The notes under the pieces were generated by a model, which saw nothing but the letters and a program-made list of their open reading frames with translations, made no database searches and was not told the DNA's origin. Below are positions 1,030-34,242 of a DNA stretch of 49,452 nt, in pieces (the stretch's first letter is position 1; each line of letters begins with the position of its first letter). The stretch spans positions 1-49,452 of the forward strand of contig QPGO01000347.1 of assembly GCA_008632985.1 (NCBI GenBank), given 5' to 3'. The position numbers and the translations under genes were made by a program. This stretch comes from Psammoneis japonica. Its lineage: Eukaryota.

Positions 1030-1048
1030 GATGATGATGATGATGATG
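1030..1048. repeat. (GAT)n microsatellite upstream of the minus-strand gene
   Basis: gatgatgatgatgatgatg seen directly. Confidence 0.8.
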
Positions 1049-6600: not shown

Positions 6601-6852
6601 TCCAACCTCGTGGGAGTGTGGGGTTGGTTGTCACACAATGGTCACAAGCTTTCCTCTCTCACTCTCCTTTCTAGAAACTCAGCAGCAAGGAAAGATGCAA
6701 AAGCCAACCAAGGCAGCCCATTGCAAATCACATGGTTGACTTTGGCATGACACCATGCTTGTCTTGGCACACAGAATGCTGACAGATGTCATCAACATTG
6801 CAGAAGACCTCATTGAGACCCCAACACAGGCAAGTCCTGGAAGCACAACAAA

Positions 6853-9109: not shown

Positions 9110-9382
9110 ATGTTTGACGAAGAATTCCTGGACAGTGTTCTGAAGTAAGTACACTGGACAGCAAAATGACTTTCCGAGTGTGATGTTTTGTCCTCACTGG
9201 TGTCGCCGGGCACCGGGCGCGGTGTTGAGTAAATCCATGAGAGCGGCGATCACCGCTCGTGCTTGCCTCAGGTTTAAGGGCCTGCCTTTGCCAGAACAAA
9301 GCGATTCCACCGCACTTCTAAGGATCACACGGAGCGTCAGAAGACGTTCGCCAGAATTGAAACAGCCAAGGAATCAAAAAGC
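9110..9382 (+). promoter_or_regulatory. Conserved upstream module shared by GT copies 2, 4 and 5 (putative promoter/5' UTR)
   Basis: 'tggaca(g/c)caaaatgac...ccagaacaa...gagc(a/g)tcagaaga...ccagaatt...acag' recurs at ~31870..32121 and ~38810..39081. Function is inferred from position only. Confidence 0.45.
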
Positions 9383-11581: not shown

Positions 11582-12339
11582 CAGATGTGCAACTTCCTAG
11601 TTTCAATGTAAATTGTTGCGGTCATGGGAGTGCAGACAATGTAGAACGGGTTTTTGGATGGAAACCATTGGTGTCCCACAAAGGCATGACGCCAGAGAGT
11701 GGCACCTTGCATTGATTGGCTGAGACAAAAAGGCGACACTGTGACACCTTTTGCCCATGTGCTGGCCTCAGGACAACAAGCCAGGTTTTTGTCCCAAGTC
11801 AGCCACAAGCAAGCCATTGAAAAAAGTCAACAATGCATGGAAAGATGGCTTGCAGAGTGTCACTTGATTTCCTGGAGGGGCACAGACTCTCTTTGTGTCT
11901 CTCACCTGAGGGCACACACACCACCAAACAGCCCTGTGACAGGTGCCCCCACAAAATGCACTTCTTTGCCATTGATTTGCAAGGCTGCAGCCCCCATGTT
12001 TTGTGACAGATTGCCTTGATCTTGGCCCTCCCACCCCGTTGACATGCTGAGGGAGTGTGAGCAACTGTCATGACATCACATTGCTCTCAGAAAATTCAAC
12101 CTCTGGATCTGTCATGCCTGCCATTTTCACAAACTCCCAAGAACTTGCTCTTACGCCCTCATTGCAGCTTGCAAGAAAAATTGCAACAAAGACATCTTGC
12201 AAGAAAAAGCAGCAACAACAAGACATCTCAAAGAACCTCAGCTGTCAAGCTCTCCCTTGGTTTCTCACTTTCCATGGACCCAGTGCACAAATGATGGTGT
12301 GAAGCAGGTGCAAGTGCAACATCACAATCACATGTCTCA

Positions 12340-13320
12340 AAAGCCCCTTGCACATGTCATCCTTCCAAAAAATTGCATCCCAGAAGTGGGGGTTGTCAGT
12401 CAAGCAGCAAATGAGCCCCACCATGCAGCACAGCTGACCTTTGTGGTGGCCCTGCTGAGCCATTCATTGTTTGGTGCCCATCATGCTGTCAACCATTTGG
12501 CCATGTGAGCAACTGGATGGTCACTCCAAAACTCTTGCTGGATCTGTCAGCACCAATGGGATTTGGCAAGATGAAAGAGGTGGACATGACATCCATCAAC
12601 ACAAACATGTCCACCTGTGCTGTGGAGCTCAAAGGCCTCATGTGTGGGGAAGATGGTGGACCCTGCTGTTGGAATGAAGTGAGCATTTCACAAGATGTCC
12701 ATGGGAGCCACAACAGAACAGATGAAAGGATGTCACAGGTGTTTTGCCCCAGTGTCTTCAACCTGTGTCTTGTCCATTTCAATCAGTCTGGTGGGAATTG
12801 CAATGCCCCCCTTTGTCACCCATGCTTGTTGGCCACAATTGCTTGAGGGGTGGGACAGCAGCCTGCCTTGGCAACAATGTGTGACTCTGCACATTCATCA
12901 AGGCAACAATGTGAGCAAGTGCAAGGATGGAGAGAAGCTCTTTTGTGGCATGAACCTGATGCTGGTGGGCTGCATGGAGTGGGCCGCCCCCCAATGCTTG
13001 ACCAGCTTGGTGATGCCAAGCATGTCTTTGTCATGATGGATGACCTGGCTGTTGCCAACAAGAGGCAACATGCACCCTTTCTGAAAGATGGGCATTTTGT
13101 TCAATTCATTTCTGGATGCAATCAGCACAGCAAGGAGACCTGCAGTGACCAGGACCTGTTCATTGAGAGTCCACACAGAGCTCAGTTTTGCCAAACCTTT
13201 GTTGGGCACCACATTTCGATGGTTTCTGCACTTGTCTGCTTTAGAAGCATCTGCATGAGATGGGGCAAGTGCCCATTGACTGATGACTTGAGTGGCAGAT
13301 GTTGTGTTGCCTGGCAGTGA
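12340..13320 (+). pseudogene. Fucosyltransferase-like copy 3, 5'-truncated and heavily decayed
   Basis: Fragments HVILPKN, TPKLLLDLSAPMGFG, LHIHQGNN (from HIRRGD), HVFVMMDD and ...VAWQ* lie in shifting frames with an internal stop. Both TpA and CpG are lost. Confidence 0.85.
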
Positions 13321-16300
13321 CAGAAATGTGAGCCCACTGCTTCTGCACATCATGGAGATTTGCTTTGGTTTTGTCAACCATTTCCCTGCAATTGCAGCAG
13401 TCACAGCAGCACTGCCTCAGTGGCAAGATGATTCTTTGCAAGAATGGAAGCCAGACACTCTCACAATTGCAAACTTGTGTGTTGCCAGCCAAAGAGGCCA
13501 GCTCATTTGACAATGGTGCAGCTTTGCACGTTGAGCATGACACCACAGTTGTGTCACTCACGCGACATCATTTGCATGGACACATGTTGATTTTCATTTG
13601 GCTGACAGCAAACACACACCTTTTTCTTGGATGAGAGGGGTCTGTGTGGGCCACAGTCCAATCTAAAAAGGGGTGATGCAGTGAAACAATGTGCCATCTG
13701 AGAGTTGATGGGGTTGCATCAAAAAGCAGCATGGTGCATCTGGGGTGGGGGGTCACCACTTGGTGGCTCCAAATGTGTTGTTTGTGCCACTCCCATTGGC
13801 ACCACTGATCCACTCACCAAATTGTGGCCTGATGGTTTTCATCATTGTCTTTGGATCAAGAATGCCGCACCATCTGAATGCTGCCCCTTGACTGTGGCAA
13901 TTGGACAAGTTGGTGGTTTCCATGCATTGCGTGCACGCTTGGTCTTGTTTTGTTTGGGCGTGAGCTTTTTTGGCAGACAAAAGCATGCCAAGCCTTGTTC
14001 AAATTCTTGCACAGGCATTTTTCTTGGGCACCTCTGCCTGACACAACCAAGAATTTGCCATGCTTTGTTGATCCCCCAAGACATCTCTCATGTCAAGATT
14101 TTCAAACACACACAGCTCAACAAGGGCACATGAATGACCAGCTTGTTGCACCCAAATGATGAACATTTGCAGTGCATGCAAAGTGGCAAACCAGTCCCGC
14201 CAAAGCTGAAGAAACAGCCATTGACAAGTTTTGCTTTAAAGTCAATCCTTTTGCAGCAATGATTTTGTCTTTGTGCTGTGAAAGGTGCTCTTTTTTGGAG
14301 CCTTTGTCCCTGGTGCCAAACACAGCAGTTCTGCAATTTGACTTTTCTCTTCATTCAAGGCTGCTTGTAAAACAAGATCATGAGTGCAACCCATTGCATC
14401 TGTGAGTGGCAGAGACATTTCTGCTGCTCCAGAAGCTGCAAAAGAGGAACTCAGTTGAATCCATGAGGTTGGTGCTGCTTCTGGCACCAAGGTTGCATTC
14501 ATGCCCAAATGCCAACTGGGTTCTTGTTGTGTGAACTTTGGCAGAGCAAGGCAATTTTGCACCACCCCCTTTCTCTGAAGAGGAGCATGTCCCTGAACTT
14601 GCCACAGAGCACACTTGTGCTGTTGCCACCAATCCTTTCCTTGGTGTTGATTTTTGGAGTGCATCACATCTGACAAATGGCCTCAAGCATCAAACATGAC
14701 AATGACACACTTTCATCATGCTTGCAGTTTCTTCCCATGCCATTGTTCCTGAGCACAAGCTTTGAGTGCCCCACCTGCCATGGCTGCAAGAAGCTGTCCA
14801 CAAGGCCTCAACAGCATGGCACTGGCAAGTTCAAACAGCTCAATCAGCGCTGCACCATTGGTTTGTTTGTTGCACCAGTTCCAAGCCACCAAGGAGGGGC
14901 ACTTCATTTTCCATCTCCATTTTGGCATCACAACATCCAACTGAGCACATTGTTTGCATTCAGCACATCTGTCATCTTGTGCTTGTTTCTCTTTTTGCAG
15001 CATTTTGATTTGTTGCAAGGCATGCAGTGGTGACACTCAAAAAGATGCTTTGGCACAGACAAGAGAAAACAGGAGATGGTGGTCTGTGCCCCCCCGCCCC
15101 GGTGTTGCTGTTTTGGAGGCATTCTGTGTGCTGCAGAAGCAGCACTCATGGCTGCGAGCACCTGAGGAGCCACAGCAATCTTGCTCTTTTGTTTCATCAT
15201 GTTGATGAGTCAAGAGCAAGTTTTTGTTTGCAGTCTGTGCCACCCACCCTTTGTGGATCTCTGGCAAGAGCTCCAATTCCGGGTTCCTAGAATTGCAAGC
15301 TCTGGCTCAAGGTCTGGTGCTTGTGACTTGTGCCACAGCCAACCAGAGTGCTCAGTTGGAGCATCAGCTGCCAGAAAAGAGAAGAGTCAGAGAATGACAG
15401 AGGGCAGTCAACCATGAAACCCACAAAACCTGCAATTGATGAAGCACATCATGTGCTGCATGGCTCAAGGCACAAATTTTGGCACTGAACTTCAAGTTGG
15501 CACCAATTGGCAGTTTTGCCAATGGAAGGTGCTCTCCAAGGCTGCTCAAAATCTGATGTCCTGTGGGAGCCGTGTCTCAACAGTGTGTTGTCAGATGCAA
15601 AGTTGCTGTTTCAGAAAATGGCTTGCAACAAGGCAAATGTGTTTGCTCTTCTTTGATTTTCAAGAGCAAGAAGGAAGCTCTGGTTCTTCAACAGGCAAAT
15701 GATTTTTTTGGTGGTTCAAACCTGCTGCAATTGAGATGTTTTTGAAGTGCTTGGGGAAGTGCAACAAAGACTTGCCTCTTTCAAGCACGTTTGCTTGTGT
15801 GCTGAATTTGACAGTGGCCAAACATCTGTGCAAAGAATGCAGCCACACAGCTGCAATTGCACGTCACAGTTTTGTCAATCATGTGCTTCTTGATTTGCAC
15901 AGATGGGAGCCTCCTGCCACTGCTGACTCCCCACTCAAGATTGCAAAGCTGCGCTGCTGCCCATTGATTTGGCATCTTCAAAGCACTCTGAAGTTAGCCC
16001 TGAACAGGGCTTGCCAGAGCATGACAACTTGGCCAAGTTCTGTGGGTTCTCACCTGCTGCAAATCACTCAGTGAGTTGTTGAGTGTGTGATCCATCTGTT
16101 GCCTTGACACTGGCCATGCTGTCATGACTCCATCCAAGTTTGCCTCTGCTCCTGCCCCACTCCATTGCTCCACTTTGAAAGGTGTTGCCAAGCCATTTCT
16201 TGTCTCAAGCATGATTGGAAATCAGCCAGCTGCAAGAAACCAATGTGCAATCTGAACTTGCACTCACATCTTTTTCTTGGACAGCTTGTCACTGATCTGA

Positions 16301-17790
16301 ATGTGTGCTTCCTGCTCTTTCTGCCAACATTTGGTTGCAGCTGCTGCTGACTCTCCTGGATGCAGCCCTGGGCCAGTCTGGGAGGAGATGGCTCAATCAC
16401 AGCTGATGTGTGCAATGCCCCATGCTCAAAAGAATGAGTGTGAGTTTTGTGCACACATTCAAAATGTTGCTCATTTGTTTCATGCATTTTCTCATGCAAG
16501 AGATGACATTTCAAGCATCCTGTGGCATGGTGCATGCTGGTCCTCATCATGACTGCACACTGCTCTTGCAGACCAGCTCATTGTCTCCTGCTTTCAATTT
16601 GCATCTTTTTCTGAGTGCAGCTGCTGTGTGGGTTTTGGGGAGAAGGCATCTGCTGCAAGTGTGCACACAGGCCACACCTGAGCCACCCTTCTTGGGTTGA
16701 CATGTGCAGGCTCTTGTTCACAAAAGCAAGCAACCAGCAAAAGCAATGTTGTGACACCCAGCAAAGGCAACTGCAATGAGACAAAAGCATCAAAAACACT
16801 TGCCACATGCTTGCCAAGAAGGGTGCACATTGAATGTGCCATTGGCTCTGCCAATCTGGTGGGGGTGTGGTGTTGGTTGTCACAATGAACAAAGCTTTCC
16901 TCTCACTCTCCTCCTTCTGGAAATTCAGCAGCAAGGAAAGATGCAAAAGTCAATCTGTGTGGCCCATTGCAAATCACAGGGTTGACTTTGGTGTGACATC
17001 CTGCATCTCTTGGCACACAGAGCCCTGCTGGACATTGTCAACATTGCAGGAGCCAATGCCTCACATTGAAACCCCTGCAGCTTGAGCATGACAGACCAGA
17101 GAAATGTGGGCAAGACGGACCCAGAAGCACAACAAATTGCCAACTGTCCCTCCCTTGGAGAATGGCTGTTGTTCTGGGGGTGGGGGCACTGGGCACTCAA
17201 GGCAGACCACCAGAGCATCCACAACAGCCCAAACTGTGCACCTTTCAAAAAAAAAGACAAAAACCTTTTGCACTCCAACACAATGTCATGCCAGGTTGTG
17301 TCTTTGCCACAGGTTGTGCCACTGGTTTTGACACAAAATCTGGAGCTCTGCTGAGAAATTTACTTTCCTTGTCCATCTGGAAAAAATTGACATGACAGCC
17401 TTTGTGAAAAATCAGCTGCAACTCACACCCCTTGTCTTGGCTGCAATCTTTGTCCCATTGCATGTGTGTCACTTCAAGCAGGGGCAGATCTTTCACAGTT
17501 TGAACCCTGCAGTGTGGGCTTTCCAAGCACTCTCATGCACGTGGCCACCACTCACTTCTTGACCAGCTTGTTTCTGGGTTTGCACCCTCCTGCATCATTT
17601 TTTGGGTTGCCATGGGCAGTGCCCACCACCATTGGCCTTTGCTGGAACAGAAATGAGGCACAGGTGGCAACTGCCATGGAGGCAAGGGAGAGAGAAGAGG
17701 TTGTTAGCCCTGAACACATGCTTTGTGGCTGGCAGCAGCAGTGCACTGCCCAGCAGCCCAAAGAGAGAAGATGGGAGCCACACATGAGAA
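13321..17790. repeat. Decayed spacer block S, copy B (extra ~365-bp insert at ~15051..15414)
   Basis: Collinear with 3626..~8490 and 34243..~38360. Confidence 0.88.
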
Positions 17791-18298
17791 ACACCACATG
17801 AATCGACCATTGGACAAATGATGCCACCCAATGTTCTCCTGAGATCAAAACAAATCAACACCATCTTGGAACCAAGCCTCAAGGGCTGACAGAAGTAAAT
17901 TGCACAAGGATGGAGATGTGTGGATGTCGTGAACTCAGAAAAAATTGGCTTCCTGGGGTGGAAAGCACTCCACTCCTGCTGGCAGGCAAGTTGGCAATGC
18001 ACACAGTCCACAGGTTTAGAGTCACAGATTCACTTGTTGTTGTTCTGGCCAGCTTCCACCAGCAGACAGATTTTTCTTGGGAAAGAATCGTGTTGGGAAT
18101 CGTTGGTTGCAATTCAATTCAATCCAATCTTAAAATTTACACCGCCACTTCCAGCGGCTGCCTGAGGCTCAGTCACGCCTGATTTTTCCTTTCAATCCAC
18201 AACCATGGAATGGAGTCAGAGCGTCGGCACACAAAACAAATGCAGTTTGCTTGATGAGTCGTGGAGCAATGGCAGACTGCACCCATTTCTGTCATTGG

Positions 18299-21200
18299 TC
18301 AGTCTGTGGTGAGGGCAGTGATCGCACGTTTCGCTGTTGCTGCTGCCACTGGCCAGCGTCGTTTAAAGTCCATGTCTTCGGCTTGTGTCTCCTCCATGGA
18401 CCTAGAGAACCACCTGGCACACTGGGGCATGTCAGATGGGTGATCAAAGATTTCCGCATGTTCGTCTTCAATCCGCCCGTCTAGGATGCTGTCAACAGTG
18501 AGTCTTGATTCTGAGGTTGGAGATGCGGCCACCTGCATTCGATGTTGCCACATGTCCCAAGCTGCACTCCACAGCTGTTGGATGATGCCTGCCACCCATC
18601 ATTCTCCAGCATTCCGACGTTGCATGAAATCGCAGCACGCCTGCTGAGCCGCTGCCCACTCTGTCGCTGGGAACCCTCACATCAGAGAGTGATCCCCGAG
18701 TGCCTCCTGAGCAACAAATGCCTGTTGCACCTGTGGATGATCCGATGTTGGCGTGGGGCAAGGAAGCTCATCGTGCCAACTCTTTACAATGCGGATGACA
18801 CCCTTCCTTAAGTCCGGGTGTGTCGAGTGATCCGTCATCCACTTCTCCAAGCTTCCTGTCTTTTTCTGCCACAGTTCCTGCGCCGTGTGAGCCGCACACT
18901 GCAACACGTGATCGATTCCCTTTTCATCTTCCCCGCATCTTGGACACGCCGCGCTCTCCACTTTTTTCCAATGATGCATGTTGTTGTTCGTTGGGACGAA
19001 GCCTGTGTTCCACTTTGGTTGCCACAGTTGTCGGAACGTTGGGCACCTTCGCATTGCTCGTCCCAGTGCTTTCCAATCAATGGTCACATGACTGTGTTCA
19101 ATCTTCAGCTTCTTCATCCAGTGCTCTGTCACAGGTGGACCGCAGACATGATCGAGGACCACACATTCTTTCCATGATGTCATCGTCTTTTCTCCCAACC
19201 CAACCGTCCAAATCGGTTGTGCAATTTCACATGGCGCAGCACCTTCATGTTCTCTTAGAGCCTCCTGATGCGCCTTGGCTAGAAGATCCATTTCGACATT
19301 CAATTGCTTGATGCAGGACAAGTCTTGCAGTGGTGATTGCTGATCCTTGTGGCCTTCCACCTCGACAGCCTCCACTGTCAATGGAAGTTTGTGAGAAGCA
19401 TGCTCCTGATCGTGTGAATCAAATCACAGTTGGCAAGGGTGGGGTCGTCGTACGAGTTGTAAAAACACGTTCTTAATCCCAGATCACAGTCACACGCCAG
19501 AGTTGTCTTCCCTCTGCGGATGTTGCACTGTTTGCACAATCGTTGGAGAAATGCCACAATGCCAAAAATTCCCCCCAGCTCTCCCCTGCAGGGTGCAAGG
19601 TCTGTGGTTGCCCCCGGAGTCTGATTCACTCCCTTGCACCAGTGTGAATGTCCTTCGGATGGTGGCAGGATCATGCCAGCCGCAGCCAGTCCTTCTTTGC
19701 ATGAGCCATCTGTGACACTCAGAGCCGTCCCGTTTTCCATTCCTTGAACTAGTTCGTTCAGGTCCGGTTGGTGTCCGCAAGGAACAAACGACCAGTCGGT
19801 GTTGCTGAGAGCTCTTTCCGGCTCTGTCACTCGAATCGTTGATGTCCCTGTTGGTGTGATCCTGGAACCGTTCCGCACGACCTGTGTCGGAAACGCGTCT
19901 TGAGGAATGTTGTTCACATTGCCATTTAACTGATGTCATGATCTTTTGTTGCGTCTGTGTTGAGGCAATCTCACACACAATGCAATGCCCTCCGTTTCTT
20001 TGCAGAACACTCTGTCGTCCGTTTCCGAACACCACCATGCTGTTGTCGGTTCCCGCGTCCATTTTCCAAGTGGCCGTCGAAGCCGAAGTTGTTGGTTCCC
20101 ACCAATGGCAAGGAAGCTTGTTGCAAGTGCTTCTTGCCAGAGTCGCCAGCAAGGTCTGGAAGGGTGCCCTGCCTTTGGCCAGTTGTGTGTTGTCTGGCAT
20201 GTTGCAGTTCCGCGCCAAAAGTCTGGAAGAATCCGTCTGCCATCGCCTGAAACAATGTCCGACAGCCTCACCGCTTTCAACCACATTCTGCATGAGTTAA
20301 TTTTCCTGAGATGATCTCCTTTGCAGCCGTGTGCTTCGAATGCTTCCATCAAGAAAGCATCATTTTGCCGCAGCAGTTGGATTGCAGGCGTCGGGGCTCG
20401 CAGTTTGATCGAATGTGATGAGCAGAAGTGCCACAGCGATTTGACCCAGGTTGCTGTGACTGGGATGGCAAGTTTGTTGCAGTCCAGTGAGAAAATGCTG
20501 TCTCCATGCCCAAGTTCCAGCACCATGGTTTCGCATGCATGCTGGATCTCTCTCCCCGTCATCAACTGTGTGTCCATTTGTTGCAAAAATGCTGCGACCT
20601 TTGCAATTCCCTGTTTCACAAATGGTTCCGACAAGCCCAGTCTGTTGAACCATTTGGGTGCAAACAGAATCTTCCTTGGAAATGACCGAGGATGTCCCAT
20701 TGCGGGCAGTGCAACCTCATGCAGCGGTTTCTCTGTCTTCTGACACTCCAGCTTCATTGGAGATGTTGCTGCAAGTGGACATTCAATGGACCGCATAATT
20801 CCGCCCGTCAGAGAAAACCAGGCCTCCGTTCTGTTGAGATGGCCACAACGTGCTTGATCGGCCCATTTTTCCACTTTCTTCTCCATTGCCTCGATCTGAG
20901 CTTCCGAGTTGCCGTCCAATGCAATGCATGCTCCCAACGTTTCTCTTGCTTCCGACACCTCCATTCTTTCAACTGTTGACCTGTTTCCTTCGTGATCCAG
21001 TGGGGTGATGTCTCCTGGCGATTCTTCCTTGCTCTGATGGATCCACCTGTCGTTTTTCCATTGAAAGGATGCCAGAGACCAACAGCTTTTTTCCGGCACT
21101 GGTGCACCACCCGTTGCCCTGATCCCTCCTTCCCAACAGTTGGACATGTCTTGAATCTCTGTCAGCACATCCTCACACGTTGAGTCATCAGAGTCCGGGA

Positions 21201-23850
21201 AGCATGGAAGATCTGTGTTGTCAACGAATGTGCAGCACACGCAGTGACAAGCGTTCTTGGAAATCGGAGTGACCGCCCGAACACCGCAGCCGTCTGCTTT
21301 GAGCATGTCAATGATTGGGATGCTAACCACGAGCCAAATGGCCGGTGCGGCACCATGACCTTGAAAGATTCCTTGCAGTGGGATCTCAATCACGCCGCAT
21401 GGTTCTTCCGAGTCTCCGCACGCCGTTCTCACGCAGTGTTTCATCTGAGTTGGTGTCCCGATCATCATGAAGACCTCATCTTCTCCCGCTCCAAACCTTC
21501 TCATGCAGAGAGCAGCTGCCGCATGAAGAATGCGATCGCAGCACGATTTAGCATCCGTGCTGTTGATGGCTCCCGGTTGGTGTGATTGACGAAACACATC
21601 ACCTGTCAACACCTTGTTGAGAGCGCAAAGAATTGCTCCATGCCTTTTCCGACTTCTGCAGGCTTCCCAAGGAATCGCTTTGCATGCTTCCGCGTTGTTG
21701 ACCAGTGCCCTTGCGATGCACTTGTTCATCTTGTTGTACATTGCTTCAAAAAGCACAATGATTCGAAGTTTTTTAACATGAGACGAGTCCTTCTTCTTCG
21801 GGATCATGACGTCTGTGGCCTTTGTCCAACACTTCAGTGCACAACCATGTTCAGCAGGAATTGCTGACATGCATGAGTCGAACTCTGCCAAAGTTTCATC
21901 TGAGCAACCTGCTTCACAGTCGGAGAAGGTCGGTCCGAAGGGGCTGCTGGTTGCACGTGCTTTCATTTTCTTCCATCCCTTGACATGCTCCTCTGTGGTG
22001 CAGTCCAAGTTAATTTCCGGGAGCGGTGGTTCTGGTCGCTTGAGCTGTTTGATGCACTTCGCTGTGTGTTCATCCACACCTGGGGGAATGTCGTACGTTC
22101 CCTCTAATGCTCTTTTTGCGGCCGGAGTGTCCGAGTTGCAGCCAAAGTCTTTCAAAAGAGGGTCCTTCATGAATGGAACCATGTGCTGGCTTGTTCAAGT
22201 TTGACCGTGTCGAGAGCGTCCCTCGCATTTGCATGCTTCTTCCATTCCCTCTTTTGTTGAGAATGTTTTGTCTGCTCCATTTGATCCTGGTGCCGTGACT
22301 GTTTGAAGCGCCGGTCGGGGTTTGCCGGTCACTCGTTTGATGCGACTGAACATTCTCTTTTGACGGCAGCTGTGCCGGATGATGCGTTCCTCTTTCTCCT
22401 GTGTGGTGCCCTTTCTTCTGCTTGCTTTGCACATCGGATCTTAAACTCATCTTGACGAAGCTTTGCGGCTTGTCTCTTGAGTTTGCAATGTCTTTTCATC
22501 ACCAGTTCATGCTCTTCTTGCACTCTGTGTGGTCGAAACCGAAGTGCATCCATTCTCCCTGTGCACTGCATCAATCTTTTGATGGTCTTCACGCTGACTC
22601 TCCGGAAGTGATGCATTTTGTAAACAAGTCTCCACATGCGAATCTCTTTCCTCGCTTCATTTATGACGTTGCTGGATTCCACCTCATTCACACACAGTTT
22701 CCTGCATTGTGATTTTGCCTTCTGTCGAATTTGATGGTTCAGGTGAAAGATCCGCTTGCATTCTTGCTGTTCAGCAAGTCCAAATGCATCAGAGTTTTCC
22801 AATCGTGTGGCTCTCCTGACAGATCGTGTTTCAGCAATTCTGCAACCACGAGCTGGACGCCTTCTTCACAACTTTCGGGTCTTTCAGTTTTCCTGCCAGC
22901 CGGTCTGAGACAGTCTGGAGAGTTTTGGTGGGTTAAAACCCAGTGCACTGGGTTTCGAAATGTCAATCCAAAGAATGCGGTGATCGGAAGTGCAGTCGAA
23001 GTCCCCAAAACCGGACATTCCTGCCTTGGTGACTTCCAGGGCTGGCGAAATTAGAGTTGTGTCAACCGGGATGTTGGAACGATTCTTGTCACAGGTTGCC
23101 ACTGTTGGAAGATCCGGATGCGTGGTTTTTAAGGCATCGATTAGATGAAGCGCTCTGTGCCACAAAACAAATGTCGTCCCTCTAACGTTTTCGTTGAAAT
23201 CGCCTCCCAACACTGTCAGATCACCTCCCTCCTGCCATTTCTTGATGTGGTTAGCCAAATCTTCCAGCAACGCTCATCTTGGGCATCGCAGATCATTCTT
23301 GGCAAGAAGGCATGTTTCTTGCTGAGAGCAGACTTTACCCGGGTTCGATTGGTTGTCTCAGACTGGTCGGCATGCTGTGATGATCCTTGTGTGAATTCCG
23401 GACTTGCCTCACAATCTCACCCATGTCCATCTGCCTGGTCCTGACGGATCTTCTCCGCTTGAAATTAAATGATGGTTGACATCTTGTGTGAGCAGATGGC
23501 CCACTCCTCCGCACGCCTTTTGTTTTCCGTTGAATGGTGCTGGTTGGCAGTGACGAGGGAGCTGTGTTTTGAAAGATGCCTCCATCGATCTTTCCATTGC
23601 TCGTGTTTGGGGATTCTCTTGAGGTTCAAGTTGATCTCTGTCAAGCCCATGAAATCAGAGTGGTGATCTGTCATCCACTTCGTTGTTCCTTTGTGTTTGT
23701 CTTCGGAAGAAGGTGAAACTGGAAGACCGCCAACGTTGTGAAAGGCGATTCTGATGACATTGTGTCGTTTTGTCAAGGTGTTGTCTCCCCATGCCTCATC
23801 CGATTGACGACTGTCAGCATCCTGATTTACGTCCTCCTTTTGTGGTGGTC
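18299..23850 (-). pseudogene. LINE ORF2: AP endonuclease, reverse transcriptase, RNase H and C-terminal zinc finger (frameshifted)
   Basis: APE: IRIAFHNVGG, GLTEIN, GGDFNE, SDHRILW. RT (19936..22182): KLRII, DAKSCCDRI, GIFQGHGAAP, FVDNTDL. RNase H: VTDGSC, RGELGG, VEGHKD, LNVEMDLLAK. Zinc finger: CPRCGEDEKGIDHVLQC. The 5' boundary is approximate. Confidence 0.88.
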
Positions 23851-24034
23851 GTCGTGACCGCTGAGGACGGCAAGGACTGGGGATCCTGTCCCGCTCCCTC
23901 GGCCTGAGAGCTGGGAAGGTCTTCCAGGTCTCCTTGTTTGGAGTCCTTCTGGGCTGAACCAACATCTTGATCTTTTGTTGCTCGCAGCTTCTCTGGTTCT
24001 TGGATTGGCGCTTCGTTCATTTCTTGCACCTCCT

Positions 24035-26005
24035 TTAACTTCGCTCTGGTTGATGGTGTTGTCTCACAGATGCATCTTCCTCCTGTTTGCACTCATGATG
24101 ATTTTCCAGATTATGAAGGTCAAAGGTTGCCAAGCACTTCGTGGCTGACGTGTGCTGTGTGTCGTCGTCCTCATTCCCAAGGTGGCCAACAGATTTTACA
24201 TCAGCGGCTTGAGATGGTTTTGTGGCAACTTCCTGCGCAGCTGCAGGTGGTCCTTGTGCTCTTCTCTTTCCGCTTGTGTCTTTTTGAACATTGTCCGAAG
24301 ATGATTTCCTTTTTTCATTGCCATTCGTTTGCGCTTCTTCGTCAGTCCACTGGTCTTCCACACCCCAAGGGTCTTCTTCGATCATGTCAGAAAACATTTC
24401 GCTGTCCTTGGACGTTGCCAGTCCTGTTTCTGGATCACATTCCAAATGCTCGTACATGGCTGTTCCTGCAGTGGTGAACCATGGTTCTGCGGATGCTCCG
24501 CAGGTGTGCAGGCATTCCGGGACAATGTTGTTGATCATTTGTGCAACTTGATCGACCAATTTCCTTGGAAATGTCATGACATGGTTGTTCAGTCTGTTCC
24601 ACTTGACATCAAGGTGGTGAATCAATGGAATGATCTTGTCTGGATTGGCAGGGTCTGGGATCCGTTTTTGCATGATGTGCTGCCGCAAGGTCATTTCACC
24701 TCCAGCAACTTGCATCTTGCGGTCCGGGTTGTCGAGAAAGCCGAAGTCGAGTTGTCCTGTGACTTTCTGGCAAAAGAAGTGTTGACGTTTTTGAAGCTTG
24801 TCGACATTCTCCTTGGTTTTGTCTGAGGCGCATTGTGTGGATTGGTTCGAGCAGCATGGGATGAAGCGCAACTCTAATCCCAGCACCTTCTTCCTGGCTC
24901 CTGCTCTCCACAGTCGTTCCGCCGCCAGCTTGACTTTGTGCACTTTGCTGGACTCAACAATGATGTGAAGAGCTTCCGGATTCTTGTTTGGCGCATTCCT
25001 GTCAAAAGTGGGTCGTTTTCTGTCCTTTCCCACTGTGGACCGCCATTGAATGCCGAGGCTGTCACAGTCCCTGCCTGGGCCAAGAGCTTCACTGAATTGT
25101 CTGTGTGGTGTCCGCTCACTCATTGTTTTGGCACTCTGGCAAAGCCGTCCAATGCATTCAAAGCATGTCGATTGACAGGGTGTGGGATTGCGTCCGATGG
25201 AGAATTTGCCTTTTTCCATGTCTGCGAACATCCCTGAGAGTTGTGAGCCGCAACCAGCCATGATTCTGGTGCTGCAGTCTTCTGCCTCCTGGATGAGGCA
25301 AAGCTGGCAGCATGTCGTGTGTTCTGCGTTGACTCTTGGATTGAGACAGTCTGCCCCCAAGAAGGTGCTTAGCATTTCTCTTTCCTTCGCTGGTCCTTCC
25401 GGGACATCTTCTGGGGATGCCATTTCTCCAAAGGCATCCGCTGGGTCGGGGTCCCATGTGCCAACTCGGACTTCTTTTCCAAGCATCTCTTGCATTGTCG
25501 CGAACGATTCTCGCAGGACTGAGGCTGCCACTTTCAGAGGTTTTTTGGATGGTGGAATCATCAGAAATGCGTTGTGATGCAAATGACACCAAGGAATTCC
25601 TTCGGATTCGTCGTTGGACTCTGTTGCTTGTGGTGTCTCGATGTGCGGTGACTCTCTTCCACTGGTTTCTTCCTCGGCTCCTTCGTGCAGTGCATCAGTC
25701 TGCTGCAACTCCTGTTTGTTTGTTTGTTCTTTGTTTTCGTCGTCGGATTCCGTAGAGTGATTCTTGCTTGTGAGTTGTTGGAAGGCATCTTCGTCGGGTT
25801 CTTTGTGCATGTGATCTTCTTCCGTGGTTGCCATTTCCGCCGGAGCAATTGCCTTTGAGTTGTCCTCCTTTTTGTTTTTTCTGCTTTGCGCAAAGGGTTT
25901 TCCATCATCAGGTGTAAGTTTTCCTTCCTTGTTGTTGTCTTCCTTGGTGCGTGAGTTTTGCGTGGAATTTGCACGAGTGTTCTTGTTTTTTACGGGGTCG
26001 TCCAC
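24035..26005 (-). pseudogene. LINE ORF1 (656-aa open segment, charged low-complexity N-terminus)
   Basis: Long ORF upstream of the APE domain, inside the TSD-bounded element. Only 1 Tyr remains. Confidence 0.75.
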
Positions 26006-26386
26006 TCATTTGTGTTGTCATCCATTTCCTCATTAAAAGGTCTTTCGGTTGTTTCGTTCATTTGTCCTTTACCTTTTTTCTTTTTATCTCCTTTGCGTGG
26101 AGAAGTGTTTTTCTTTCCGCCGGTGCTTCTGCGTTTGGCACCTGCCATTGTGCGATTTTTTTAGCTTGTTGATTGTTCGTGCGTGCGAGTTATGGGGATC
26201 GTTGGTTGCAACACAAACGACACCGCCGAGCGAGAAGCAAAGCAGTGAGTAGTACGAGTCTTCACAAAAGCATGGTTCGTCCTTCAACCGATAGGTTCAC
26301 TCCAACTTGGACTTTTCTCTGACGACTCGCTCGCAGATCGCAGATCGCAGCAAAACGAAGAGCTTAGCGATAGAGTGAAGATAAAG

Positions 26387-28294
26387 ATGCCCGACGACGA
26401 ATCTCCTCCTGGAATAACGACCGCTGCCCCTGGTCGACAGTTGAAACTTCCAGTAGGTCGTTTAGCGCAACCGGATGAAGATGTTTTCGTATCTCTCAGC
26501 GATACCGTTGAGAAGCTGGAGACACTGATGGCGGATGCCGCGAAGAAAGGTGGTAGAATTGTTTTTATTCGGGCACCCGTCGGAAGTGGAAAGTCAACTC
26601 TTGTTAAATATCTTACAATGAAGCATAGCGACCAGTTTGTAAGCGTTCGCCCCGCGACTTCGGCGAAAAATTGGTACAGGAGCGCCATCAAAGCCAGCGG
26701 CCTAGATCCGACAACTAGCGACATCGCCGACGCGCTGCAGGCCATCGCAACAATGGGCAAGACAATTGTCATCGACGAAGCGCATAGTCTGTTTGCGTGG
26801 CCAGAAGTGGTGGCTGACTTCTTCAAATTTACGGAGCATAACCAGCCCCCACTCAGATATCTTCTTTTTTCCGCTTCCGGCTCTGCTGTGGACAGCAAAG
26901 GAAAGACTATTGCAACGCCGGGCGAAATTAGACAGAAATACCTTTGGTACCCTCCTCAACCGGATGCGGATCAATTGAGCCAAGATCTGGTGGAAGCCGA
27001 AAAACCAATTTACCTCGATTCCGACTCCGTCCGTTTCTTTACCAAGCTCTGCGGTGGCCATCGTGGGATCTTTATGGAAGCCATGGGCTGGGTCCAGGAA
27101 TGCCAAGACAATACTCCAGACAAACTAGAAAACACAAGTTGGCGCATAAGAGATAGCGTTTCACACGTCCGCCGATCGTTTGAGGATAGCCGCTTGGGAG
27201 GACGCAAGGCGTGGAACACCGGTTTGCGGGCGGCATTCAAGCAAAGTCGCGCCGTACGAGTGAATGGCGAGTTCGCCATACTAGGGAAAATTCCGGCAGA
27301 ATTCGGACTTGTTTTGTACGGCGGGCCCAAAAGACGTGCCGAGCTGAATGGCAAGGAGCGCGATTTGACCATCAACGGCTTTTTGTTTCCCGAGCGCCAG
27401 AGTACCAATGAGGAGTTCGTCGCTTTCGACTGGATGGATCCCTTGGTGCTGTATGGGGTCCCGAATCCTATAATGGCCGAGTATTACGGTGACATTTTAC
27501 CACTCGAGGTGGAAACCTACAAGCGTGAATTGGTAGAAGACTTGAAGAAACCGGTTTCTGCTGCTGACCTGATAGCCCGCGCCCTTCCGTACATGACATT
27601 GTCCGTCGTAGTGGGCGTCCCAATTTCAAGAGGTAACAAGAAACTAAGCGATCCGCTCTCGGTAAATGCGCTGCCGTACGAAGACGATTACAACCGCGCC
27701 ATGGCGGAAATACTCAGAAATCAAATGGATTACATTGTATCAACTCCTCTAGATGAAAAAAAGGGAAAGACCGACATAGTCGTGTCCTATGAAGACGACA
27801 CCACTTGCGCAATCGAGTCTATCATGTCATACCAACGCCCGGTATGTGTAATGCTTTGACTTTAAGATACGCAGTGCTTGGTGTTATTGTCACTTTCTCA
27901 TTATCCTTTGTCCTCTCATATGAATCTACAGGGAGCCCACGAAGAGCATGCTGGTCGATTTTTTATTCATGAAAAAGCAAACTACGCTGACGCGAAACAA
28001 AAGGCCCTCGTCATCATTGGTGACAAGGCAGCAAACGTGAAAGACCGCATCCAACATGTCTCAGAAGTGTTGAAGAACAAAAAAGGCATCGTTGAAATTA
28101 TTGGTCTTTGTGTTTCTCTAAATCATGACAGCTATGAAATGTATCTGGAGGGGGCTGAAAAACCTCTGTTCTTTGTGTGCGATCGAGTTGCCAAATGTCT
28201 GGAAAAAGACGATATGGGACGGTTCAAGACTGCGCAAGTTTGTTCCCTTGAATCTTCTGAACACGCGCAGAAGAAACAAAAGGCGTCAGGTTAA
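26387..28294 (+). CDS. P-loop NTPase fused to a C-terminal PD-(D/E)XK restriction-endonuclease-like domain (Crinkler/CR NTPase+REase architecture), ~605 aa; intron 27842..27931
   Basis: Walker A RAPVGSGKST, Walker B IVIDEAH, LCGGHRG. The C-terminal YEDDY...GKTDIVV...CAIES...EEHAGRF...Y resembles CR-REase motifs. A GTATGT donor and CTACAG acceptor join ORF 26375..27859 in frame with ORF 27878..28294. Unmutated composition. Confidence 0.8.
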
Positions 28295-30593
28295 AGTGTG
28301 CCTTTCAGTTTGAAGAAAACGCACACAAAATGCTCGATTCATTGAATCATCTACAAAAATGCATGATCATCGTTTACGTCTTCACTTCGGTAGGTATGAC
28401 AGTACGACGCAAAGATTTAAGTACTCTGAATGTTTTATGGCTGCCCTGTCCAGAGAGGACTTTGTTACAGTCAGGCGCCCCGATAGTAGTACGTAGAACT
28501 AAATATGCAGAGTAGAATCAATAGCTTGCTCACCGCGACGGGTGGAACCCGGGGGGAGCCACAGCTACATTTTGGCCAAGAAATTCAACGGTCTACTGTC
28601 GGGAAACTTGACAGTAAAAACGTATTTGCACTTAAAGTAACAAAGTTGGGAGTGTATTTTTTGGAGACGCGCCAGATCTTTCGTCGCGCCATGTAGAACA
28701 TTTTGGTCAACAATTGCGATGTTAAAAAAAATGCTTGAGTCAAACAAAGAAAAAATTCGAATGGTGCCAATTCGGTCCGAAGAAAAGGTCAAAATGCGTC
28801 CTCGCGAACGGTTTCCGCGCTCCCCATCCTCTTTCTCCATCGCGCAAAACGAGACAGACGAAGCCACGGCAGCAACGGGAAATTGACGAAAAGCATTTGT
28901 GCGATTGACTGCCCAAGCAAAGACATTCTCTCAACAAGCAGTTGGAGCAAAGACGAAAGCGACGAGTCCCAGTGCCTCCTTCAAGCATGCTTTCACCTTT
29001 TCACTCACTGTTTTTTTTCTCGTCATTGTTTTGTTTCTTGGGCTCTTCAACAGAGCCAGAGGTGTGCTTGCGAAACCACTGTCAGTGTCTCAAGGTTGTT
29101 TCCACTCATCTCAACAATGCACAGGTTGCAATCCCTCCAGCATCATTGGGCAAAAACACCCTGGAGGTTTGTGTTGCTGTGCCAGCAATCTTGTGCCAAG
29201 CATTTTGTCAGCCAAGGCCTTGTTGGAAATTTTGTTGGGATGAGAAAACAAAAAAAACTTGGATGGACCATTGAGTTTCCAACAAAAGCTTGCCTTGACA
29301 ATTGCCCCACTTGTCTTGCTGGATGACAAAAAATGCCATCGTTTGGACAACATGGGTGGTTTCTCTGGCTCCCACCAAACAACAACTCAAGCAAGCCTTT
29401 TATGAGCAGCAATGGCAGGCACATCATCTCCCTCTGTCTGCATCAGGACCATCTGTGACAAATCCATTGGTGCTGGAAGAGACGGCTCATTTCCGTCAAG
29501 CTTCTTGGGAACACAGAAGCCATTGTGGAATGTGCTGCCTCAGGATTGCATGGCGCACCCATTTCACATCACACCAAGGAACTTTGCAGCACTTTTTTCA
29601 TGGAGATGTGTCAATGCATGCAGACACCATGGCTTGCAGTGCAGGAAACACCAACATTGTGGGCACAAACAGTGCTCTGCTTGAAACGGCACCACAAGAC
29701 TTTTCCTGAGCACAGCCTGAACAGCACAAGGGCACATGTTGCAGTCAAAACTCAAATTTTTCGAATGTGTTTTATGGACAACAACAACAGCAGCATCCAC
29801 TGCCACAGCAGGAACAGCACCACTTGCCACAGTGGCAGCACCAACAACAAACAGCAAACCATTGGATGACTCAATCCATCGTGACTGAGCCCTCCTTTGG
29901 AAATCCCTCTTTTGCACTGCCACAGAGTTCAGAGTCATGAAAATTATGGGACCATTCTGCATTGTCCAGTCAACAGCATTGCTTGCAGAAAGGCTCACAA
30001 AACTGCTTTCCATTGAGCTGTCCAATGGCCCAACCAAATGGTCCACAAGTTGCGCACAGTCCCCAGCAACCACTTCACCACCAAGACATGCCATTGCAGC
30101 AGAAACAAGAAAGGGACAGACCAACTGATTGAGATGTCCATTTCATTTCCAGCACTTTTTAATTGCATGTGTTGGACCTTTCCTTGTGTGCAAAGCTCTG
30201 TTCTTGATCTGAGCCAAGCGCATCTGTTTGGAGCGCCCCTCTCATCTGACAACCATGCAACAAGACCATCCACCTCAGAATCAAACTCAACCAGCATGGA
30301 GGCATCTGGACAGAGTGTTTTCAATGATTCTTCAGTCTTCAAAAAGCAAAGCTCTCTCAAAACTGAAGCAGCACCCATGCTCTAGTCTCACCCATTGCAG
30401 CATCAAACATTGCAGGAGATTCTCCGCCGTTTGTTGAGGCTGCAATGACATCCTCACAACAATGCCTTGCCATGTTGACATGGAGCCAATCATTGGCATT
30501 GGTTGGAATCAATGCATCCCAAAAAAGTGAACCCAAGTCCAAATTCCATGTGCAAACCAACCCGGGTGTGTCAAGGGTGGCAACAATGCTTGG
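27548..30593. repeat. Block Y copy 1 (3' part of the NTPase gene plus downstream region D), duplicated at 46081..49452
   Basis: Direct collinear alignment from 'ggtttctgctgctgac' to 'aaagtgaaccc...aacaatgctt'. Confidence 0.9.
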
Positions 30594-30889: not shown

Positions 30890-32121
30890 GTTTGGTTGAC
30901 TTCAGCTCCACAGTGCAGCTCTCCAGCCTGTCTTTGATCTTTTTTGTCACACAGTGGCTGCCTGTCACCCAGAGCTTCCTGGTTGGTGGTGCGCAACATT
31001 TTGAGGCTTGTTCTTGGACTGCACAGAAATTTGTCAACAACCCCTCTCCATGGTCAAGATTGTCAACAAATGCATGTTGACAGGGTGCTCATGCCACCAC
31101 ATGAAATTTTCAGCATGTCACCCTTCAATGCTGTGAAGATGCTGCCCCCCAAAACCCGCTGCCACTCAGCACACTCCGGGCATTGTTTTGTTGACCTTGC
31201 CAAGGCTGTGCCTGCTGTGCATGTCAGATGATGGAATGCTGCTGTTGATGCTTTTTGTTGAGGGTGCCTTGCATGTGCACAGCTGCCCTGTGTTGTTTGC
31301 ATGTTGGGCCCAACATGATTCCTCCACTTGGGGAAAAATGGCTGGCGCTGATGCTGGCTCACAATTTTTATTTTGCTGCTCTCCTTTCCACAAAAACCAG
31401 CAGCAAGAAGAAAAGCAAGAGTCAGACAAGGCAGCCTCCTCCCACAAATCATGGGATTGACACCTTTGGCAGAGCACCCTGTTTGTCTTGGTGCGCAACG
31501 CCAGAGACTTGCTGTTGGCGGCAGTGGCCAATCTCTCACTCACAAACTCCCAAGCAGCCAACGGCATCTTGAGCCCAACCTGCTTGCTCTGAAGCCCTTG
31601 CAGCTTGCAAGAAAAGCAACAAGAGGACATCTCAAACAAACATCAGCTGTCAAGCTCTCCATTGGTCTCTCACTTTCTTGCAAAACGACGTCCGTCCCCC
31701 ACCCATGCCGGCACACACAAAAGAAATCCAACATGCCACACCGCCCGGCACTACATACAGTACATACAGTGCGAGCCGACAGATGGACGAAAAAAGAACT
31801 GTCATGCTTTTTAAGAAAGCACGACTAAATGTTCTGTGAAGATTGTCTTTCATATAAAATCACGTCCAAACTGAAGTAGATTGGACACCAAAATGACTCT
31901 CGCCGGCATGGCATGCCAGTTCTTCTTCTGTCTGGTGGCGGTTTTTGATGGGTATTGAGTCGAATCAAGAGAGCTTCGATCACCTCTGTGCTTGTTTCAG
32001 GTTCAATTGATGTGCTATACCAGAACAACGCGATTGCCACCGTATTCTAAGGAATTCTAAGGAACACACGGAGCATCAGAAGACAATCACCAGAATTAAA
32101 ACAGCGTAGGGCTCTGAAAAT

Positions 32122-34242
32122 ATGTACCGGTATGATGCAAAACGTTCCTTGGCGGTGTGTTTCGCACTTCTCGTCATTCTTGGAGTTGTGGTGCGCTTCA
32201 ATGTCGACAGCGACGTTAACGGGGTTTCGGATATACTGAGCCTTCGATCTACTGTCGATAGGCAAGGAAAAAAGATAAAAAAGCTCGTGAACTCAAACTG
32301 CGTTTACAGCGTTTCAGCGTTTGATCGTACGGGTCAAAGGCAGTCCGAACCACTTTCCAACAGCTGTCTCGAGTCCAATGCCGACCTGTTGACACACCTT
32401 GTGGCGCAATCCGGTGCCGACGTCGATGATCCGAACGCCACCGCCGTCATCGCGATCAGCGTCGTTGATCGTCAAGAAATTCAGATGATTGAATCACTAG
32501 CACTCCTCGCTGACGAGTTTCTTACGCCAGTATGGACTGGCGCATCATGGCGGAGCGCTTCTTAGTAGACAAGGCGGGGGCTCTGACTCGGATGAATCTG
32601 GGAACACCACGGGCAGTGATGTTATGGAGGCAAAACCTACCGTTGAAAAGTCAAGACTCTTGTTGGACCCGGCGGCGTATGCACCGGCTGAAAGCGGAAC
32701 TTTCGCAGACCCTTTCATCTCTGCAATCCGTGCCCTTCGTAATGATGAGAGTGGCGGATTGTTGCGCGAGAACAGGAACGCTGCCTCGGTCGGAAAGCAC
32801 AATTCAAACTTGATGGAGGAATTGATTCATGTCGATTTGATTCTCGTTCGGGTCTTGGAGGAGAAATTGGCAGCTTTTTCCAATGCCTTGAGACGCTTTC
32901 AGTTCCCAAAACCACTTCCGATGATGAAGGCGAGGATAGTGAGTGTGCCGCCAGTATGGCAATTAATCATGGCCGAACATGGGTCAAATACGGCGGCCCA
33001 ACGGACTTTCTTGGAGCGTGGACCACGACCAGTGCCAGTTCGCTTACCGAATCCATCGCAAAGGGCTTTCCCTTTATCCGCGTCTCACCTGTTCAGTGGG
33101 CACGAACGTACCATTTTGATACCTGCAGTGCCGAAACAGTTGCTGCAATTGATCCTGAACTTGGTATTGTGAATGGCTTGGACTGCGGCTTTCTTCCCAT
33201 TTACGGTGGGACCTGCCTACGTGACCGAGTCGATCCCTCGCTCAAGTGTATGAGCGAGTTTAAGATGGGGAGCCTCAGTCATGTCGTCCTTCCAAAGAAT
33301 GGCATCCCAGAGGAGGTTTGTCAGTCAAGCCACGAAGAAGCCCCGCCATACACTGCAACTACCCTTCATGGTTCCTATGCTAAGCCATTCTTCGAGTGGT
33401 GCCCATCGTGTATGGCATTTGGCTATAAAGGCAACCGGACGATCACTCCGAAACTCTTGTCGAATCCGTCAGCACCTATGGGCTTTGGCGAGTTGAACAA
33501 GGCGGACATGGCGACCATCAACACAAACATGCCTACCTGCGGAATGGAGCTCAATGACCTCTCGTGCGGTGACGACGGCAGACCATGCTGTTGGAGCGAA
33601 GTGAAAATTTCGCAAGATGTCCTTGGGAGCCACAACGGAACTGCTGAAAAGATACCACGGGCATTTTACCCCAGTATCTTCAACCTGTATCTTGTCCGTT
33701 TCAATCGGTCTAGTAGGAATCGCATCGCCCGCCTTTATCATCCACGCTTGTCAGCCATGATTGCTCGCGGGGTTGGATGGGAGTCAGCCTTGGCAACCGG
33801 ACGCTGCGCGACTCTGCACATTCGTCGAGGCGACAATATGGACCGGTGCAAGAGTGGAGAGAAATTCTTTTGTAGCATGAACCTAACGCTTGCGGACTAC
33901 ATGGAGAAGGCCGCACCAATGCTCGACCAGCTCGGTGATGCCAAGCACGTCTTTGTCATGACGGACGATCCGGCCGTTGCCGATAAGAAGCGACAAGCAC
34001 CCTTTCTGAACGATGGATATTTCATTGAGGTCATTTCTGGATATAATCAGTATAGCGAGGAGACCTACAATGACTGGGACCCGTTCATTGAGAGTCTCCA
34101 CGGAGCCCAGTTTTGCCGAGCCCTTGTTGGGCTCCACATTTCGACGGTTTCCGCGCTTGTCTTTAGAAGCATTTGCGTGAGATGGGGCGAGTGCCCCTTG
34201 ACTGACGACTTTAGTGGCAGACGTGGCGTTGCCTGGCAGTGA
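32122..34242 (+). CDS. Fucosyltransferase-like paralog, copy 4; three apparent 1-nt deletions (~32529, ~32580, ~32905)
   Basis: ORFs 32122..32565, 32624..33172 and 32956..34242 are collinear with copy 2. HIRRGD/FVMTDD motifs are intact, Tyr codons are retained and composition is unmutated. Confidence 0.75.

Follow-up and report, generated by a model that had tools for sequence, protein, structure and literature searches.

Targeted A:T to G:C hypermutation of chromosomal DNA at TpA dinucleotides has so far been described, in the literature searched, in one preprint and for one alga. In mutation-accumulation lines of Bigelowiella natans, two integrated viral regions carried 231 mutations, of which 230 were A>G or T>C at TpA; the rate there, about 6e-7 per site per generation, compares with a baseline of 3.5e-10. 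Activity was recorded in 11 of the 15 lines, the authors proposed an ADAT2-like adenine deaminase, and their Discussion notes the 5′ U/T preference of ADAR and the tRNA adenosine deaminases (10.64898/2026.01.13.699255). CpG has no occurrence in the main text of that preprint. For the model diatom Phaeodactylum tricornutum, a mutation-accumulation study reports CG, CC and TG as the contexts that favour mutation, together with a GC>AT bias, and shows no signal at TA (PMC6604790). Here we analyse a 49,452-bp stretch of Psammoneis japonica (contig QPGO01000347.1, positions 1 to 49,452; hereafter the window), in which a non-long-terminal-repeat retrotransposon (long interspersed nuclear element, LINE), pseudogene copies and intergenic spacers are depleted of TpA and, to varying degrees, of CpG. 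An original prediction, made for this DNA from its letters, had proposed that TpA is erased before CpG by a separate and faster mechanism, and that the ratio of the two could date the silencing of each element. Our preferred reading, to which we assign a probability of roughly 0.7, is that DNA outside a few intact gene islands with sharp borders is subject to two transition processes, each specific to a sequence context. Erasure of TA together with CG was not described in the literature searched, and the B. natans preprint was the only relevant match for TpA (10.64898/2026.01.13.699255).

Self-BLAST and alignment revealed that the repeated unit of the window is a gene, termed GT, followed by a spacer; the gene is a putative glycosyltransferase gene, a label drawn from a motif resemblance, and its protein had no Pfam match and no sequence match in PDB. 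Unit A occupies 1589-8484 and unit C 31951-38363, and unit B consists of GT2 (9221-11585) and then a partial second gene copy with its spacer at 12353-17787 (GT3 and spacer B). A second gene, encoding a putative nucleoside triphosphatase (NTPase), and its downstream DNA (27548-30591) recur as a truncated copy at 46081-49449. GC content over the window is 0.497, and the whole-window ratios of observed to expected dinucleotide counts (o/e) are 0.15 for TA, 0.50 for CG, 1.63 for CA and 1.59 for TG. Composition maps at 1 kb and 200 bp, together with o/e values per element with block-bootstrap 95% intervals, resolved three states: islands, erased DNA and intermediate elements. The islands (TA o/e 0.48-0.62, CG o/e 1.01-1.17) are plus-strand gene regions at 1-4000, with GT1 and an upstream minus-strand open reading frame (ORF) (TA 0.50, CG 1.03), at 26212-28800, with NTPase1, whose ORF at 26249-27859 is intact and matches AAA_22 at E=2.3e-07 (TA 0.62, CG 1.17), and at 31900-34600, with GT4 (TA 0.48, CG 1.01). 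Erased DNA has TA o/e of 0.02-0.06, CG of 0.06-0.19 and CA and TG of about 1.8-2.1. This state was assigned to spacers A (4001-8484), B (13703-17787) and C (34611-38363) from self-BLAST, discordances and o/e (TA 0.02-0.03, CG 0.07-0.14), to GT3 (12353-13702, plus strand) from paralogue comparison (TA 0.02, CG 0.06), and to the DNA downstream of NTPase1 (28979-30591) from its alignment with the homologous 47642-49449; between 16001 and 17000 there is neither a TA nor a CG.

Between these extremes lie GT2 (plus strand), an old GT-gene paralogue with 24 TA (o/e 0.20, 95% interval 0.11-0.29) and 152 nearly intact CG (0.86, 0.75-0.99); the LINE (18113-26197, minus strand), with 49 TA (0.11, 0.07-0.13) and 356 CG, largely kept (0.69, 0.61-0.74); an unclassified minus-strand element at 43000-46000, with TA essentially gone (2 sites, o/e 0.01) and CG about half kept (0.49); and NTPase2 (46081-47540, plus strand), a 5′-truncated copy placed at an intermediate stage by paralogue comparison (TA 0.10, CG 0.56). 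The intervals of edited elements and islands do not overlap. The prediction's description of the LINE as nearly TpA-free yet CpG-rich, and of the spacers and GT3 as lacking both dinucleotides (TA 0.02-0.03, CG 0.06-0.14), is thus borne out, and both of its quoted CpG-rich strings lie inside the LINE, at 23849 and 20074; GT2 is indeed CpG-rich, but calling it nearly TpA-free was an overstatement, as it keeps about 40% of the island TA level. Most of this comparison material (GT2, GT3, the spacers and the NTPase copy) lies outside 18113-26197. Where TpA o/e is down to 0.02-0.2, CpA and TpG o/e are up to 1.3-2.1, and since TA and CG both converge on TG and CA, GC content stays at about 0.48-0.50 throughout despite editing. 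The sequence of erased DNA is complex, unlike a microsatellite; a simple-repeat artefact was ruled out, as Tandem Repeats Finder detected just one array, of 54 bp, in the whole window.

The locus resembles B. natans, as the preprint describes it, in its regionally confined A:T>G:C transitions at TpA giving TpG or CpA and in its long-term clusters of TpA depletion with CpA and TpG enrichment, and perhaps also in an enrichment on reverse-transcriptase and foreign sequence (10.64898/2026.01.13.699255). It differs in being near saturation (TA o/e 0.02-0.04, compared with a Rho of 0.45 in the preprint's region from nucleocytoplasmic large DNA viruses), in the CpG erasure that accompanies TpA loss here, in a preference for a 3′ pyrimidine and in a strand bias, neither of which the preprint's text reports, and in the editing of pseudogene copies and intergenic spacers as well. 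Island Rho here is about 0.5, near the cut-off of 0.43 for the lowest 5% of windows in B. natans. The edited sequences in our window are the LINE, the 43-46 kb tyrosine-free element, pseudogene copies and spacers, and Pfam scans recovered no viral hallmark gene.

The direction of change was polarized in the edited copies GT3, NTPase2 and GT2 by taking as ancestral the state on which intact paralogues agree. Of the 117 ancestral TA sites that had flanks, 19 survive; 60 turned into TG, 30 into CA and 8 into something else, such that TG or CA was the outcome for 90 of the 98 lost; of 261 ancestral CG, 112 were kept, 64 had changed to TG, 53 to CA and 32 otherwise. Copy by copy, GT3 kept 2/28 TA (17 TG, 8 CA) and 3/66 CG (32 TG, 26 CA), NTPase2 kept 7/50 TA (29 TG, 13 CA) and 34/80 CG (23 TG, 16 CA), and GT2 kept 10/41 TA (15 TG, 10 CA) and 76/120 CG. 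Background divergence at sites outside pyrimidine-purine (YR) dinucleotides was 10.1% for GT2, 6.6% for GT3 and 3.8% (26/687) for NTPase2, and reverse changes were rare (0-4 per comparison), with NTPase2 having gained 2 TA and 4 CG from 189 CA/TG sites. Erased copies also disagree with one another in a characteristic way: dinucleotides that are CA in one copy and TG in the other number 61 between spacers A and B, 65 between A and C, 54 between B and C and 69 in the NTPase downstream pair, compared with 2 between GT1 and GT4, and any other double difference between erased copies occurs at most 8 times. Such discordances would arise if the same ancestral TA or CG took different routes in two copies, to CA or to TG, and ordinary mutation rarely produces them; the alignments thus demonstrate that erasure took place in situ and independently in each copy.

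Erasure is also confined to particular regions. The number of TA per 200 bp falls from 4-15 to 0 at approximately 4000, 28800 and 34600, and it changes too at the LINE junction at 26197; the stop after about 4000 is abrupt, and the boundary of the GT4 island is homologous to that of GT1. GT1 and GT4 are about 89% identical overall and under purifying selection (ratio of nonsynonymous to synonymous divergence, dN/dS, 0.27-0.39, at dS 0.16-0.36), and their discordance is 0.27 at TA and 0.205 at CG, close to the 0.13-0.25 seen at other dinucleotides, while in NTPase2 86% of the TA are gone at a non-YR divergence of only 3.8%. These alignments establish a process that is, on the sequence evidence, regional and not universal. 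An ordinary neutral mutation spectrum operating everywhere, with TA and CG surviving only where genes are under selection, would explain why islands and intact ORFs under purifying selection fall together. We consider this highly improbable, because several hundred base pairs of non-coding flank within the islands (3345-4000 past the GT1 stop and 27860-28800 past the NTPase1 stop) have normal TA and CG, the GT1-GT4 pair has diverged to its present dS without excess TA loss, 43 of the 50 TA in NTPase2 disappeared against so low a background, and the boundaries are abrupt.

Fungal repeat-induced point mutation (RIP) likewise amounts to hypermutation by transitions in specific contexts, which inactivates transposons and additional gene copies, and a RIP-like process, in which duplication triggers the mutation of repeats, would fit the many edited segments that have a second copy in the window. 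However, Neurospora RIP creates TpA from CpA, whereas TpA is destroyed here, so that both chemistry and direction are opposite. Nor is there a dependence on duplication: both members of the GT1/GT4 pair are unedited despite about 89% identity and a tract of about 500 bp at 99-100%, and NTPase1 is untouched while its copy NTPase2 is edited. Since GT1, GT4 and NTPase1 are all repeated and yet spared, duplication is not the trigger, and we regard a RIP-like origin as extremely unlikely.

Within the edited DNA, TA loss precedes CG loss. None of 98 segments of 500 bp combined a TA o/e of at least 0.3 with a CG o/e below 0.45, whereas 26 had TA below 0.1 with CG at 0.2-0.8. After background transitions were subtracted, the ratio of TA to CG excess rates was 3.1 (95% interval 1.8-5.8) in NTPase2 and 8.2 (3.0 to unbounded) in GT2; in GT3, where both dinucleotides are saturated, it was 1.0 (0.5-2.0). 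Zones adjoining the islands have TA erased and CG kept (28801-29000, 0 TA and 16 CG; 4001-5000, 1 TA and 15 CG; 34601-35000, 0 TA and 8 CG), and TA erasure reaches nearer to the intact genes than CG erasure does. The polarized sites and the composition maps together demonstrate, at the level of sequence, that TA is lost before CG and several times faster, in agreement with the predicted order (NTPase2 kept 7/50 TA versus 34/80 CG, GT2 10/41 versus 76/120).

We caution against the further step of using the TA:CG ratio to date each element, for which the ratio is a poor clock: TA soon bottoms out at about 0.02-0.04, the intervals on the ratio estimates are wide, the preprint describes the B. natans process as episodic, with activity in 11 of 15 lines, and the age of a copy is unrelated to the time since its editing began. 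The prediction had made GT2 and the LINE younger than the NTPase copy, and that copy younger than the spacers, which confuses copy age with editing time; GT2 is the most diverged paralogue (dS 0.36-0.83 against GT1 and GT4, with dN/dS 0.19-0.33) and yet the least edited. Taken as a pair, the TA and CG signals can still rank elements by the time they appear to have spent unprotected, if only coarsely, in an order that runs from GT2 through the LINE and NTPase2 to GT3 and the spacers.

TA changes carry a motif and also a strand bias, the latter absent from CG changes. A>G occurred at 65 of 131 TAY half-sites compared with 25 of 103 TAR half-sites (Y, pyrimidine; R, purine; Fisher P=8e-5), and the surviving TA reflect the same preference, with YTAR and RTAY contexts accounting for 33/53 and 0/53 in erased DNA and for 29/49 and 4/49 in the LINE, as opposed to 63/309 and 94/309 in the islands. 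TA became TG in 60 cases and CA in 30 (P=0.002; Cochran-Mantel-Haenszel by 3′ base, P=1.3e-4), whereas CG became TG in 64 and CA in 53 (P=0.36). By 5′ base, CG was lost at 40/131 sites after A, 23/108 after C, 25/138 after G and 29/145 after T. A Pol-eta-like WA signature was rejected, as GT2 has 19 AA>AG plus TT>CT events versus 23 AA>GA plus TT>TC.

Among known systems, CpG decay by deamination of 5-methylcytosine (5mC) resembles the CG changes here in that CG goes symmetrically to TG and CA (64 versus 53), in DNA that is presumably silent, with gene islands spared; it differs in that depletion is extreme here (o/e 0.06-0.14) and always trails TA loss. AID/APOBEC enzymes act on exposed single strands, which the non-template-strand bias of the TA changes resembles. 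The ADAR, ADAT/TadA and APOBEC families differ from the present case in that the substrate here is chromosomal DNA, both strands are changed and the 3′ preference is for C or T and not G. With ADAR and ADAT/TadA there is in common a 5′ U/T preference, as the B. natans Discussion describes it (10.64898/2026.01.13.699255). The DNA motifs reported for amphioxus ADAT2, GAA and TCG (PMC10354150), do not fit and were rejected, there being no TCG preference in the CG loss.

An alternative interpretation is that one mechanism, either a single deaminase acting on A and C or a 5-methylpyrimidine oxidase, causes both losses by attacking T:A at TpA and C:G at CpG with unequal efficiency, making one clock with two rates. 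In keeping with this, TA and CG disappear from the same domains and leave the same products, a single trajectory roughly fits the elements, and amphioxus ADAT2 is reported to deaminate both A and C in DNA (PMC10354150). We nevertheless consider it unlikely, because the strand bias is present in TA changes and absent from CG changes, CG loss lacks the TCG preference of the amphioxus enzyme, TA o/e spans 0.01 (0.00-0.03) to 0.19 (0.11-0.24) at a CG o/e of 0.49-0.56, TA is erased and CG kept next to islands (28801-29000 and 4001-5000), and only 1 of the 231 B. natans mutations given in the preprint was not at TpA. Two separate mechanisms, as originally predicted, are plausible on the grounds that TA changes have a TAY preference and a strand bias that CG changes lack, that TA erasure reaches nearer to genes and that nearly all of those B. 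natans mutations were at TpA.

The LINE allows a partial view of its ancestral state through its protein. It is an insertion of exactly 8085 bp, flanked by a perfect 14-bp target-site duplication (left copy 18099-18112, right copy 26198-26211; 14/14 bp identical), as had been predicted; the duplicated string matches exactly at 2 places, a count reached in 0 of 100 shuffles. Self-BLAST identified neither terminal repeats of the LINE nor an internal repeat or other copy of it within the window. Its frames are broken, with ORFs in frames 1, 3, 2 and 1 and in-frame TGA stops, and Pfam recognized no endonuclease family in the broken upstream ORFs; the 5′ ORF P0002 (24035-26005, minus strand, 656 aa) has 0.2% tyrosine and no Pfam match. 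The reverse-transcriptase ORF P0001 (19936-22194, minus strand, 752 aa) was identified by 26 relatives (E 1.9e-176 to 1.4e-27, 25-49% identity), of which 6 carry PF00078, and its look-alike clusters are mostly from diatoms. RVT_1 itself reached only E=0.09 on P0001, compared with E=6.9e-09 (36.1 bits, cut-off 29.6) on the relative P0073 and E=1e-05 (25.8 bits, below cut-off) on P0063, the two relatives that were scanned.

P0001 is almost free of tyrosine (0.3%) and rich in cysteine (5.5%), whereas all 25 relatives examined have 2.4-3.9% tyrosine and 1.1-3.1% cysteine. We defined a conserved column as one in which at least 70% of the relatives, themselves only 25-49% identical, have a common residue. 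P0001 keeps 219 of 293 such columns overall and 16 of 18 conserved arginines, 8 encoded by CGN and 8 by AGR, with one lost arginine now CAG; it keeps none of the 10 conserved tyrosines, of which 8 are now cysteine (TGY), 1 histidine (CAT) and 1 phenylalanine. A working reverse transcriptase without its conserved tyrosines is implausible, which argues that the loss occurred in a dead copy, and these codons are most simply read as having been changed after insertion. The possibility that active members of the family are intrinsically TpA-poor, which the original prediction had named as a refuting outcome, is contradicted by the relatives: judged from the protein alignment, the LINE is not intrinsically TA-poor.

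It could still be argued that the LINE, and GT2 perhaps as well, arrived poor in TA, whether as a family trait or through A-to-I editing of its RNA before reverse transcription, given that the LINE passed through an RNA intermediate and that conserved tyrosines changed to cysteine (TA>TG on the sense strand) over histidine by 8:1. The 8:1 ratio is mostly contextual, however, as 6 of the 9 codons that went from tyrosine to cysteine or histidine follow a pyrimidine, so that on the opposite strand the target is a slow TAR site. Beyond the implausibility of a functional enzyme that lacks all 10 conserved tyrosines, with every relative examined at 2.4-3.9%, GT3, NTPase2 and the spacers are DNA-level duplicates that were carried with their flanks and edited on both strands, and we consider arrival in a TA-poor state very unlikely.

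Editing in place by two processes would proceed as follows. The first and faster process would convert A:T to G:C at TpA, preferring 5′-TAY-3′ (RTA on the other strand) and giving TG or CA; it would destroy tyrosine codons (TAY to TGY or CAY) and remove TAA and TAG stops. The second and slower process would convert CG to TG or CA on both strands equally, as expected for the deamination of methylated cytosine. Both would start once a sequence loses its protection, be it, for example, a pseudogene copy, an inserted retroelement or intergenic DNA, and both would run in place and independently in each copy, towards an end state in which TA and CG are both absent and CA and TG stand at about double their expected frequency. 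The sequence comparisons establish in which direction, context and order the changes run, and that copies changed independently and only in particular regions. By analogy, we infer that the first process is the same kind of regulated TpA hypermutation as that in the B. natans lines, possibly catalysed by an adenine deaminase acting on DNA; the dependence of the second on 5mC is our inference from its products. The preprint's data independently support, by the same analogy, the notion that TpA editing can run without CpG change, and CG erasure may be a separate, slower process beside TpA hypermutation.

Several observations weigh against this interpretation. Equating the first process with that of B. 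natans is an argument by analogy, and the two cases differ in that CG is also erased here whereas the preprint's hypermutable regions show no raised GC>AT (10.64898/2026.01.13.699255). The long-term TA excess is tens-fold over background and not thousands (in NTPase2, 42 of 50 TA changed versus 3.8% per site). The strand bias comes from three polarized elements that are all on the plus strand, such that an asymmetry of transcription is inseparable from an effect of replication direction. For the LINE and the 43-46 kb element, only tyrosine and arginine codons can be polarized, and not the ancestral TA and CG content. Finally, the window yielded no deaminase gene.

The remaining features of the window are described here. 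The 43-46 kb element has minus-strand ORFs of 422 and 202 aa with 0.0% tyrosine and raised cysteine and histidine, and a Pfam search with them gave nothing above noise. The best matches of the NTPase have 85% and 67% identity, and the nearest named ones are from a diatom (50%) and dinoflagellates (about 33%). In GT2, alignment to the paralogues shows tyrosine replaced by cysteine or histidine, and an open frame of 767 aa (9278-11581) exceeds the frames of the intact gene because upstream TAA and TAG stops have turned into CAA and CAG. Relative to that frame (10304 region), GT1 (2349 region) and GT4 (32965 region) have in common a 1-bp difference and an in-frame stop, and the true gene model of GT1 and GT4 may include an intron or a downstream start. 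A tract of about 500 bp is 99-100% identical between GT1 (3100-3629) and GT4 (33716-34246), the rest of the pair being about 85-92% identical; it looks like a recent gene conversion between two protected copies. The minus-strand ORF of the first island (277-981, 234 aa) has a hydrophobic N-terminus followed by serine-rich, glycine/glutamate-rich and proline-rich low-complexity stretches, and had no Pfam match. A G+C-rich block of 40 bp with 4 CpG is identical downstream of NTPase1 (28527-28567) and in the edited copy (47074-47113), with the CpG around it decaying; the chance that all 4 were kept is about 0.03 at the overall retention of the copy. The block at 28527-28567 had no Rfam or tRNA match, no structured RNAs or tRNAs were found that would explain conserved blocks, and a dinoflagellate origin was rejected, a motif search for the spliced leader having given 0 matches. 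The plus strand is locally lopsided in CA and TG o/e at 6807-7806 (CA 1.39, TG 2.21), 8001-9000 (2.04, 1.51) and 38001-39000 (2.28, 1.61), which may be an orientation mark of strand-biased editing in unannotated elements. Many erased regions contain ORFs of 150-300 aa.

The window records a long-term outcome, in which TA is nearly gone, tyrosine codons have become cysteine or histidine codons and sharp borders separate edited DNA from intact genes. One consequence is practical: the loss of TAA and TAG stops produces long spurious ORFs, and TA-free DNA misleads both ORF finders and Pfam searches, as the E=0.09 for the reverse-transcriptase domain illustrates. CpG decay trails in the same domains, and the pair of signals ranks elements, only coarsely, by the time since protection was lost. 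The TAY motif and the strand bias are new details that offer testable predictions for the enzyme and for the published mutation-accumulation data. We raise as a tentative possibility, to which we lean less than even, that a lineage other than Bigelowiella has here run a TpA DNA-editing defence to completion, with chromatin-state-guided adenine editing, a TAY motif and a one-strand bias acting atop the decay of methylated CpG. If so, every unprotected sequence would be driven towards TA-free and CG-free DNA while active genes are spared to within a few hundred bases, and TpA editing would be a widespread algal genome defence and not the peculiarity of one species, for which the present locus would supply a sequence motif and a relation to methylation.

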